Source: Escherichia coli
GTDB taxonomy: Bacteria > Pseudomonadota > Gammaproteobacteria > Enterobacterales > Enterobacteriaceae
DNA length: 64,000 nucleotides
Reading direction: 5' to 3' (one strand)
Assembly (NCBI RefSeq): GCF_003334305.1
Contig: NZ_QOWS01000002.1
The translations under genes and the position numbers were made by a program. The notes beneath the pieces are model-generated. The model had not been told where the DNA came from and made no database searches. It worked only from the letters and a program-made list of their open reading frames with translations. Within the stretch, counting starts at the first letter, position 1; each line of letters opens with the position of its first letter. Shown one piece after another: positions 54,526 through 57,009 of the stretch.

Positions 54526-55449
54526 TCAGAACGGCATTGATTTTCGAATAGCGTTAATCATCAACTGGCAACCAGAAGAGAACGTCGCATCTACGCGGGT
54601 CAGTATTCCAATCGGTTCGCCTGCACCATGTCCCGGAACAGGCAGGGCCACCAGCGTGGCATGACGCAGGTCGTCTTTTACAGCGCCAGAAGGGACAAAC
54701 CACACGTAATCGTATTCAACCGTAAGTTGACGAGATAGCGAAGCAGACAGCGTTTCGATACAACCCGAAGGAATTTTACAGCCCTGGCTCTGCACTAATG
54801 CATCTGAATGCTGGCGTGGCGCAGTGCCTTCTGGTGATACAACGACCGGCCATTCCAGCACCCGGCTTAGCGTTACGTTCTCCTGAAGTAGCGGGTGATT
54901 AGGGCGGACAACCAGCTTCAACGATTCAAGAAACAGCAGTTCGTAATTAAGCCCGGTCATCAGTTCAGGATCTGACATCCGACCAATGCCGATATCGATT
55001 TCCCCGGTTTTTAAACCCGCCAGAATCATAGGGTTACTCATTGTCGCAACTTGCAAGGTCGTCTCTTTTTGTTGCTGATGAAACTGACCTATAACCGAAG
55101 GTAATATCCCCAGTGCCGCAGTAGGTAGTGCACCAACCCTGACGACATCATTATTAAGACCTTCTTTACGATGAAGCGACTGTCCGGCAGTGTTGATGGC
55201 GTCAAGAACTCTGACTGCATGCGTTAAAAATTGTTCGCCGGGTAAGGTAAGTTGCGCCCCCTGACGACCACGCTCAAACAAGCGAGCGCCAGTCAGCTGC
55301 TCCAGTTCATTCAATGTCTTAGAGAGCGCAGGTTGACTCAAATTAAGGGTTTCAGCCGCGCGCCCCAAAGTTCCTTGTTGTGCGACAGCTACGAATGTAT
55401 GAAGGTGGCGCAAACGGATGCGCTGACTAAACAGACTATTTTTTTCCAT
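54526..55449 (-). CDS. ydcI: LysR-family transcriptional regulator
   Basis: HTH LGRAAETLNLSQPALSKTLNELE; likely start MEKNSLFSQRIRL (ORF track extended to 55590). Confidence 0.85.
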   Translation of the reverse strand: MEKNSLFSQRIRLRHLHTFVAVAQQGTLGRAAETLNLSQPALSKTLNELEQLTGARLFERGRQGAQLTLPGEQFLTHAVRVLDAINTAGQSLHRKEGLNNDVVRVGALPTAALGILPSVIGQFHQQQKETTLQVATMSNPMILAGLKTGEIDIGIGRMSDPELMTGLNYELLFLESLKLVVRPNHPLLQENVTLSRVLEWPVVVSPEGTAPRQHSDALVQSQGCKIPSGCIETLSASLSRQLTVEYDYVWFVPSGAVKDDLRHATLVALPVPGHGAGEPIGILTRVDATFSSGCQLMINAIRKSMPF

Positions 55450-55665
55450 AAGCGATGTTAAAAACGAAGCGGTGTCGCTGACAAGTGAAGTTGTTTGATT
55501 ATGATAACTTGATTGCAAAATATTATTAACAATTAAAGCAATTGTGTTACAGCAAAATGGATAATATTGATGTTTTCGCGGCGAGATCACAGTTTGTAAA
55601 TTCTTCCCGCCAGAGTGAATGCGGTTACCTACACTCCAGATTACTGACCACTGGAGGCAGACACT

Positions 55666-57009
55666 ATGGCGAACAGCATCACGGCGGATGAGATTCGGGA
55701 ACAGTTTTCGCAGGCAATGTCAGCCATGTACCAGCAAGAAGTTCCGCAATATGGCACGCTGCTGGAACTGGTAGCTGATGTGAATCTGGCTGTGCTGGAA
55801 AACAATCCTCAACTGCACGAAAAAATGGTAAATGCAGACGAGCTGGCGCGACTGAATGTTGAACGTCATGGGGCGATTCGCGTTGGGACTGCACAAGAGC
55901 TTGCTACTCTTCGGCGGATGTTTGCCATTATGGGGATGTACCCGGTGAGCTATTACGATCTCTCGCAGGCAGGGGTGCCGGTACATTCGACAGCATTTCG
56001 GCCCATTGATGATGCTTCTCTGGCGCGTAATCCCTTCCGCGTTTTTACCTCCTTACTCCGCCTTGAGCTTATCGAGAACGAAATTTTGCGCCAGAAAGCG
56101 GCGGAGATTCTGCGTCAGCGCGATATCTTCACCCCACGTTGTCGACAACTGTTAGAGGAATATGAGCAGCAGGGCGGTTTTAACGAAACACAGGCACAGG
56201 AGTTTGTGCAGGAAGCCCTGGAAACGTTTCGCTGGCACCAGTCAGCAACGGTAGATGAAGAAACCTATCGCGCCTTGCACAACGAACATCGGTTGATTGC
56301 TGATGTGGTCTGTTTTCCTGGATGCCATATCAACCACCTGACGCCACGTACGCTGGATATTGACCGGGTGCAGTCGATGATGCCTGAATGCGGAATTGAA
56401 CCAAAAATTCTGATCGAAGGGCCGCCGCGCCGCGAGGTACCGATTTTACTACGCCAGACCAGCTTTAAAGCACTGGAAGAGACGGTGTTGTTTGCGGGGC
56501 AGAAACAGGGCACGCATACTGCGCGCTTTGGTGAAATAGAGCAGCGTGGTGTGGCATTAACGCCGAAAGGGCGACAACTGTATGATGATCTTCTGCGTAA
56601 CGCTGGAACCGGGCAGGATAATCTCACTCACCAAATGCATTTACAGGAAACCTTCCGCACTTTTCCTGACAGTGAGTTTTTAATGCGTCAGCAAGGGTTG
56701 GCATGGTTCCGGTACCGTCTGACGCCTTCGGGTGAGGCGCATCGTCAGGCGATTCATCCTGGAGACGATCCACAGCCCTTAATTGAACGTGGTTGGGTAG
56801 TGGCGCAACCCATCACCTATGAAGATTTCTTGCCCGTTAGCGCGGCGGGGATCTTCCAGTCAAATCTGGGTAATGAAACGCAGACACGCAGTCACGGTAA
56901 TGCCAGTCGCGAAGCATTTGAGCAGGCGTTGGGTTGTCCGGTTTTGGATGAGTTCCAGCTTTACCAGGAAGCGGAAGAACGCAGTAAACGTCGCTGTGGT
57001 TTGCTTTAA
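55666..57009 (+). CDS. ydcJ: DUF1338 metalloenzyme-family protein
   Basis: 447-aa ORF divergent from ydcI. Confidence 0.85.
   Translation: MANSITADEIREQFSQAMSAMYQQEVPQYGTLLELVADVNLAVLENNPQLHEKMVNADELARLNVERHGAIRVGTAQELATLRRMFAIMGMYPVSYYDLSQAGVPVHSTAFRPIDDASLARNPFRVFTSLLRLELIENEILRQKAAEILRQRDIFTPRCRQLLEEYEQQGGFNETQAQEFVQEALETFRWHQSATVDEETYRALHNEHRLIADVVCFPGCHINHLTPRTLDIDRVQSMMPECGIEPKILIEGPPRREVPILLRQTSFKALEETVLFAGQKQGTHTARFGEIEQRGVALTPKGRQLYDDLLRNAGTGQDNLTHQMHLQETFRTFPDSEFLMRQQGLAWFRYRLTPSGEAHRQAIHPGDDPQPLIERGWVVAQPITYEDFLPVSAAGIFQSNLGNETQTRSHGNASREAFEQALGCPVLDEFQLYQEAEERSKRRCGLL

Follow-up and report, generated by a model that had tools for sequence, protein, structure and literature searches.

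The divergent ydcI-hglS pair of Escherichia coli as a possible remnant of an older regulatory unit

A stretch of 64,000 nt from the Escherichia coli genome (assembly GCF_003334305.1, contig NZ_QOWS01000002.1), referred to here as the window, was analysed at the interval 54526-57009, which holds the gene for YdcI, a LysR-type regulator, and, divergently oriented, the enzyme gene ydcJ, now named hglS; the regulatory link between these two neighbours is the subject of this work. Both are genuine, already annotated E. coli genes, and their identities and divergent orientation, as proposed in the initial annotation of the window, agreed in position with the open reading frames (ORFs), RefSeq and Pfam. 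The two coding sequences (CDSs) are separated by an intergenic spacer of 216 bp (55450-55665), and the gene order in RefSeq is trg, ydcI, hglS and opgD. A 354-aa ORF with a GTG start lying over ydcI was discarded as a mechanical over-extension, the gene being annotated with 924 nt in RefSeq. Moreover, positions 54400-57100 were 100% identical to E. coli DH5alpha, the window being K-12-like, and the ydcI-hglS stretch was found in 5406 of 5426 complete E. coli genomes (coverage of at least 80%). On the other side of ydcI, trg (+) and ydcI (-) converge with a gap of 37 nt (54489-54525), and trg-ydcI is among the candidate 'excludons', that is, cases of overlapping convergent transcription (PMC12288877). 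Furthermore, the region from gapC to ydcJ (~50000-57009) is a deletion hot spot; in two evolution studies, deletions of ~5.6 kb mediated by insertion sequences took out cybB, hokB/mokB, trg and ydcI and reached into ydcJ (PMC5072838, PMC8569431).

The product of ydcJ matched the Pfam family PF07063 (HGLS, the former DUF1338) with an E-value of 1.6e-161, its residues 14-400 covering positions 1-386 of the 386 of the model, and exceeded the equivalog cut-off of the NCBIfam family NF049974 for HglS (743.4 vs. 550 bits), and hglS is also the name used in RefSeq. It differed by a single residue (S193L) from the crystallised protein of PDB entry 2RJB and aligned end to end with the HglS of Pseudomonas putida (PP_5260; PDB 6W1G/6W1H), with 528 bits and an E-value of 1.2e-157 against 6W1G. 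The active-site residues were placed by a residue-by-residue alignment to 6W1G, with the roles defined by Thompson et al. for H70, H226 and E294 (metal), R74 (substrate) and V402/S403 (loop) (PMC7286885), and their conservation was taken from an alignment of 44 diverse homologues, drawn from a search of 1.84 billion representatives. All the features of the family were found in YdcJ, namely the profile, the His-His-Glu metal triad (H68, H224 and E290), the specificity arginine and the Val-Ser loop, the loop segment PVSAAGIFQSNLG being identical in YdcJ and the P. putida enzyme. In addition, the E. coli protein itself converts 2-oxoadipate into 2-hydroxyglutarate in vitro, the same reaction reported for P. 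putida HglS (Thompson 2020, PMC7286885). The enzyme encoded by hglS depends on Fe(II) and O2, yields D-2-hydroxyglutarate and CO2 from 2-oxoadipate, and has kept all its catalytic residues. The statement in the initial annotation that DUF1338 includes such Fe(II) enzymes was correct, the family being that of the 2-oxoadipate dioxygenase/decarboxylase HglS, of which E. coli YdcJ is an assayed member (PMC7286885), and the loss of catalytic residues that would have spoken against it was not observed; this enzymatic half, including the metal residues, was already known from the literature. However, the P. putida enzyme performs a step of D-lysine catabolism, whereas no source of 2-oxoadipate is known in E. 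coli (PMC7286885).

YdcI showed the layout of a LysR-type regulator, with an N-terminal winged helix-turn-helix and a C-terminal substrate-binding domain in about 300 aa, as given by the Pfam domains HTH_1 (residues 13-72, 4.6e-19) and LysR_substrate (residues 100-304, 7.5e-35). Its best NCBIfam family by far was TIGR02424 (TF_pcaQ), with 287.7 bits over the full length, the next family reaching 137 bits, and its nearest solved structures were those of CatM and BenM. Among the LysR-type regulators, YdcI belongs to the PcaQ branch. PcaQ is the LysR-type activator for the beta-ketoadipate pathway's protocatechuate branch in Agrobacterium, Sinorhizobium and Cupriavidus, and in R. eutropha it responds to protocatechuate (PMC11519575). 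However, the score of YdcI fell below the equivalog cut-off of 303.8 bits, as did those of eight YdcI orthologues (276.4-299.7 bits), among which the top scores belonged to proteins encoded beside pcaHG. Given this, and the lack of adjacent pca genes or any other gene of the protocatechuate branch at the E. coli locus, YdcI is nearest to PcaQ but should not be filed as PcaQ.

The published roles of YdcI also differ from those of PcaQ, since its targets in E. coli are carboxylate/proton symporter genes and gltA, and its phenotypes concern pH stress, growth on acetate and persistence. In particular, 18 sites were mapped by chromatin immunoprecipitation with exonuclease digestion (ChIP-exo), including nhaA, dtpA, lldP, gltP, gltA and yobA, and were related to pH homeostasis and acetate growth (Gao 2018); ydcJ is absent from the targets named in the main text of that paper. 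Furthermore, acid survival and the activity of the gadBC promoter require ydcI according to published work, ydcI is the high-persister locus hipQ, with the 'trigger' of the regulator described as unknown (PMC7049120), and its inactivation is recurrently selected during long-term starvation (PMC11441560). Both ydcI and ydcJ were up at stationary-phase entry in O157 (PMC2241611). In the literature search, no paper was found naming ydcI together with hglS or together with PcaQ, and the papers naming both ydcI and ydcJ gave no regulatory link.

The neighbourhood was then surveyed starting from hglS loci, 80 of which were returned by a genome scan with the HglS alignment as query. Among the Enterobacterales loci with enough flanking sequence, a YdcI orthologue (65-97% identity) lay upstream of hglS and divergent from it in all except Erwinia mallotivora, the pair being present in Escherichia, Citrobacter, Enterobacter, Kosakonia, Pseudocitrobacter, Kluyvera, Cedecea, Siccibacter, Mangrovibacter, Pantoea and Mixta and spanning two families of the order. 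No YdcI orthologue was found within 4 kb of hglS in any of the 47 loci from other orders. Outside Enterobacterales, hglS lay repeatedly beside GcvA/DsdC-type LysR regulator genes that are not orthologous to ydcI (Ralstonia, Rhizobium and Nitrincola) and often beside genes of ydiJ-type D-2-hydroxyglutarate dehydrogenases (Halomonas, Microvirga and Sphingomonas). The latter arrangement fits a route of two steps, in which 2-oxoadipate becomes D-2-hydroxyglutarate and then 2-oxoglutarate; the ydiJ gene of E. coli K-12, by contrast, is far away. Three kinds of genes were found to intervene between ydcI and hglS. The first was pcaH-pcaG, encoding protocatechuate 3,4-dioxygenase and placed on the ydcI strand in five enterobacterial loci. 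The second, in Erwiniaceae, was a gene for a transporter of the major facilitator superfamily (MFS) resembling PcaK (scoring 468 bits against the PcaK model, short of the 770 cut-off), which could import the substrate of HglS or a precursor of it. The third was a ppaC-like gene, encoding a Mn-pyrophosphatase-like protein, in four Citrobacter loci.

The spacers between pcaH and hglS in these relatives hold the sequences ATAACCGTTGGTTAT, ATAACCTGAAGTTAT, ATAACGACAGGTTAT and ATTACCGGGGGTTAT, located 98-113 nt upstream of the pcaH ATG. From a few of these spacers, a pattern of the T-N11-A form, ATAAC-N5-GTTAT, was set by eye, which resembles the mapped PcaQ site of S. meliloti (ATAaccgggggatTAT); matches were scored out of 10 positions and given a P-value from shuffles. 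In 13 related loci belonging to several genera, some with and some without pcaHG, a box scoring 9-10 of 10 lay upstream of hglS at 115-134 nt from its ATG. The spacing between the box and ydcI was variable (137-249 nt). Kosakonia cowanii and Cedecea neteri are among the species that keep the box. In Cedecea neteri and Enterobacter sp. Ag1, where pcaHG is lacking, remnants resembling the pcaH promoter (GTTAATTTTTTGTTAATTTATA) were nevertheless found beside the box, which argues for a loss of pcaHG. The spacers of Escherichia, the Enterobacter cloacae complex and Citrobacter were without a box of 9-10 of 10.

The pattern was also scored in the regions of published YdcI targets, taken from E. coli MG1655, which constitutes an independent test because the pattern was derived from other species. 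The gltP region presented a full match of 10/10 (ATAACAAATGGTTAT) together with a second site of 9/10 (P = 0.002), and the best matches were 9/10 in the regions of lldP (P = 0.016), gltA-sdhC (P = 0.036) and dtpA (P = 0.046), and 8/10 in that of nhaA (P = 0.36). Thus, four of the five regions reached 9-10 of 10, with a Fisher combined P-value of 1e-4, and five matches of at least 9/10 occurred in 2.5 kb of target regions, compared to two in the 64-kb window and one in 13 kb around ydiJ. These results support, at the level of sequence comparison, ATAAC-N5-GTTAT as the recognition site of YdcI. The best match in the ydcI-hglS spacer of E. coli was only 7/10, at chance level (P = 0.79), so no canonical T-N11-A site of the kind expected for a divergent target was found there. 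A box upstream of ydiJ, whose product would be the next enzyme of the route, was likewise considered and rejected (7/10, P = 0.86, chance level).

Some further matches were encountered along the way. A 9/10 match inside the ydcI CDS (ATAACCGAAGGTAAT, 55091-55105) encodes the residues ILPSVI and is not conserved as DNA in the orthologues (scores of 3-9), being probably due to chance. At the start of the window, ATAAATAACGGTTAT (394-408, 9/10) precedes the start of abgR at 419 by ~18 nt, in the spacer between the divergent abgA and abgR, and probably represents a T-N11-A box belonging to a different LysR regulator. The sole such match in the 13 kb around ydiJ was ATAACAGCATGTTAG (9/10), which precedes the start codon of E. 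coli K-12 sufA by ~31 nt.

A comparison of the spacer in 32 loci resolved it into three parts, namely block A on the ydcI side, a variable middle and block C on the hglS side, the coordinates of which are collected in Table 1. In block A, the predicted ydcI promoter and a promoter match on the plus strand overlap in such a way that their -10 elements use nearly the same bases; the same hexamers were listed by Shimada (2014), where the ydcI-hglS spacer was marked as H-NS-associated. The plus-strand match is unlikely to be a conserved hglS promoter, because block A stays with ydcI when other genes intervene. Moreover, an inverted repeat of the form TAAC-N15-GTTA recurred by eye in most block A sequences of Enterobacteriaceae and is, as the long dyad of Table 1, a candidate site for autoregulation or for another transcription factor. 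The middle part varied in length among loci and was shortest in Escherichia, where GATAATATTGATGTTTT resembles a degraded box.

Block C of E. coli contains the invariant GATCACA (55585-55591), AAATTCTTCC, a -10-like C-TACACT (55629-55635) and the Shine-Dalgarno sequence GGAGG (55653-55657). Across relatives, the invariant elements were GATCACA, AAATTCTT and C-TAnnCT, followed by the Shine-Dalgarno sequence, and the invariant columns in the alignment of 26 Enterobacteriaceae sequences were G10, T12, C13, A14, C15, A16, A24, T26, T55, A56, C59 and T60. In Citrobacter, the block was kept inside the 120-nt gap between ppaC and hglS, and in four genera it was present downstream of pcaH. The key positions of sigma-70 and sigma-S promoters include -13C, -12T, -11A and -7T. 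As the invariant bases of C-TAnnCT match these positions, this motif may be a -10 element, possibly of the sigma-S (stationary-phase) type, which would fit the stationary-phase induction of ydcJ in O157 (PMC2241611).

Other candidate elements in block C were discarded. A hairpin over the ribosome-binding site of hglS (CTCCAG...CTGGAGG, ~55634-55657), to which attention had initially been drawn by the CTCGTG/CACGAG found at that position in Siccibacter, was dropped, as the E. coli sequence folded no better than its shuffles (z = -0.54), the covariation term of RNAalifold was -0.05, and the pairing was not kept in Kluyvera, Mangrovibacter and Pantoea. A CRP site at GATCACA was rejected because the left half-site was absent and not conserved by eye. 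Finally, a scan of positions 54300-57300 against Rfam gave no match at E ≤ 1, so neither a riboswitch nor a small RNA was evident there.

Table 1. Coordinates of the features of the ydcI-hglS locus in the window and of the gene arrangements in related loci.
Feature	Position	Strand	Description
ydcI CDS	54526..55449	(-)	LysR-type transcriptional regulator, 307 aa, PcaQ branch; ATG at 55449, TGA stop
Block A	55450..55550		Conserved ~100 nt proximal to ydcI; ydcI 5' untranslated region and promoter; accompanies ydcI even beside pcaG, ppaC or MFS gene
Plus-strand promoter match CTGACA-16-TATGAT	55478..55505	(+)	-10 TATGAT at 55500..55505; overlaps ydcI promoter
Predicted ydcI promoter TTAATA-17-TATCAT	55529..55501	(-)	-10 TATCAT at 55506..55501
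Long dyad TTAACA-N13-TGTTAC	55526..55550		Inverted repeat adjoining the predicted ydcI -35
Spacer middle	55560..55576		Short, variable; resembles a degraded ATAAT-N-GTT box; canonical ATAAC-N5-GTTAT missing
Block C	55585..55665	(+)	Conserved ~80 nt proximal to hglS; accompanies hglS
ydcJ (hglS) CDS	55666..57009	(+)	Fe(II) 2-oxoadipate dioxygenase/decarboxylase, 447 aa; ATG start, TAA stop
Codons of H68 and R72	55867..55881	(+)	H68, metal ligand (HglS H70), invariant; R72, binds distal carboxylate of substrate (HglS R74), at least 90% conserved
Codon of H224	56335..56337	(+)	Metal ligand (HglS H226), invariant
Codon of E290	56533..56535	(+)	Metal ligand (HglS E294), at least 90% conserved
Codons of V391 and S392	56836..56841	(+)	Substrate-contacting loop (HglS V402/S403); S392 at least 90% conserved
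pcaHG insert loci	L008 2428-3821; L009; L011; L022; L023	ydcI strand	Pseudocitrobacter, isolate RIT691, Cedecea sulfonylureivorans, Kluyvera
PcaK-like aromatic-acid/H+ MFS transporter gene	L030 2599-3933; L031; L033; L034; L037	hglS strand	Directly upstream of hglS; Pantoea, Mixta, Erwinia
hglS with ydiJ-type neighbour	L038 817-4020; L058 5368-8409; L080 5125-8259		

The pair is read here, with middling confidence, as the evolutionary remnant of a YdcI-hglS unit, the direct coupling of which would be weak or absent in E. coli. According to this reading, an ancestral regulatory coupling was probably real and was later weakened or lost in Escherichia. YdcI would recognize the T-N11-A box ATAAC-N5-GTTAT, which in many Enterobacterales would act from ~125 nt upstream of hglS and, where pcaHG is present, also from ~100 nt upstream of the divergent pcaH. 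As a box in such a position would serve both sides, the ancestral spacer would have been a bidirectional region controlled by YdcI. The conserved adjacency and the fixed distance of the box from hglS suggest that, in many Enterobacterales, YdcI controls hglS at its promoter, and that this control is probably exerted in the relatives from the bidirectional region also serving pcaHG. In Escherichia, the E. cloacae complex and Citrobacter, the box-bearing middle of the spacer would have gone, so that E. coli would retain the block with the ydcI promoter and, conserved separately, the hglS block with its putative stationary-phase-type -10. Transcription of hglS in E. coli K-12 would therefore most likely depend on a promoter of its own, with YdcI contributing little or nothing directly and acting instead at the boxes of gltP, lldP, dtpA and gltA, and the D-2-hydroxyglutarate produced would be oxidised to 2-oxoglutarate by YdiJ, encoded elsewhere. 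For E. coli, the remnant view is favoured because the box is gone, the hglS promoter block appears autonomous and the published YdcI sites lie elsewhere.

Several observations weigh against it. LysR regulators often autoregulate their own promoter, Salmonella YdcI reportedly binds its own, and the ydcI promoter of E. coli is only ~100 bp from the hglS block. The adjacency is retained in essentially all E. coli genomes. Furthermore, the spacer does hold weak candidate sites, one in block C (ATCACAGTTTGTAAA, 7/10) and another in block A (the TAAC-N15-GTTA dyad), and YdcI may bind it through such weaker or non-canonical sites. The box model itself was drawn by eye from few spacers, and the match near abgR implies that the pattern is in part generic for LysR regulators. 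In addition, the promoter assigned to hglS was deduced from sequence alone.

An alternative, which is considered possible but clearly less probable than the remnant view, is that YdcI activates or represses the divergent hglS in E. coli in response to an effector (2-oxoadipate, D-2-hydroxyglutarate or a precursor such as 2-aminoadipate) by means of low-symmetry sites in the spacer. It would account for a divergent adjacency kept throughout the Enterobacterales surveyed, except Erwinia mallotivora, while the flanking genes change, and for a box placed at a narrow range of distances from the hglS ATG, variable from ydcI and kept in lineages without pcaHG. Moreover, the textbook layout of regulator, transporter and enzyme is seen in Pantoea and Mixta, where the genes opposite ydcI are those of an MFS transporter and HglS, the non-orthologous LysR genes beside hglS elsewhere imply that control of hglS by such regulators recurs, and both genes are induced at stationary-phase entry (PMC2241611). 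The arrangement is also like that of the pairs CatM/BenM-catA/benA, CbnR-cbnA and IlvY-ilvC, in which a regulator and an enzyme gene diverge from a short, AT-rich common spacer. However, those pairs have a strong T-N11-A site near -65, and the E. coli ydcI-hglS spacer has none above chance, nor does the region upstream of ydiJ. The independent conservation of block C, the ChIP-exo targets named in the main text of Gao (2018), none of which is ydcJ, the lack of any paper found to join ydcI and hglS, and a family affinity to the protocatechuate regulator PcaQ instead of known 2-oxoacid sensors also count against it. The initial annotation had seen in the pair the signature of a substrate-inducible catabolic unit; this proposal is partly supported, by the conserved divergent adjacency and by the box at a fixed distance from hglS in 13 loci of relatives, but is not established in E. 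coli, given the PcaQ affinity, the pcaHG genes of five relatives, the modular spacer, the missing boxes and the silent literature. The putative regulatory link between YdcI and hglS is weaker in E. coli than in its relatives.

A purely historical adjacency, in which YdcI would be a PcaQ orthologue with pcaHG (and the PcaK-like transporter gene) as its only local targets and would regulate hglS in no species, appears improbable. Although pcaH-pcaG does lie between the two genes in some loci with a spacing of box and pcaH ATG that would suit the classic -65 position, the remnants in Cedecea neteri and Enterobacter sp. Ag1 point to gene loss, and the top scores on the PcaQ model come from the orthologues encoded beside pcaHG, the box is conserved amid strongly diverged flanks in the absence of pcaHG, its constant distance is to hglS and not to ydcI, the pair also occurs in Erwiniaceae, where no pcaHG was seen in that locus, and the adjacency persists where both outer flanks are rearranged.

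A further and still more speculative idea, rated slightly below the historical explanation, is that YdcI is a PcaQ descendant from a bidirectional region between pcaHG and hglS that was rewired onto carboxylate/proton symporter genes and gltA while still sensing either D-2-hydroxyglutarate or a C6 di- or tricarboxylate (2-oxoadipate, or one resembling beta-carboxymuconate or 3-oxoadipate), so that HglS would set the activity of YdcI by consuming or producing its ligand. If this were true, the metabolism of 2-oxoadipate and D-2-hydroxyglutarate would be tied to the flux of the tricarboxylic acid cycle, pH homeostasis, the hipQ persister phenotype and the adaptation to long-term starvation.

As such, the YdcI-hglS pair was already known and its arrangement is ordinary, so that the finding as originally written adds little. 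The leads that are possibly new are modest, and comprise the affinity of YdcI to PcaQ, a box recovering four of five published targets, its loss in Escherichia, and the pcaHG or MFS inserts of the relatives. The question of the YdcI effector matters because of the high-persister locus hipQ (PMC7049120), the inactivation of ydcI during starvation (PMC11441560), acid survival and growth on acetate. The search for it is narrowed by the placement of YdcI in the PcaQ branch, a concrete DNA box, a short list of candidate ligands and the species that keep the box, in which the link between YdcI and hglS can be tested cleanly.

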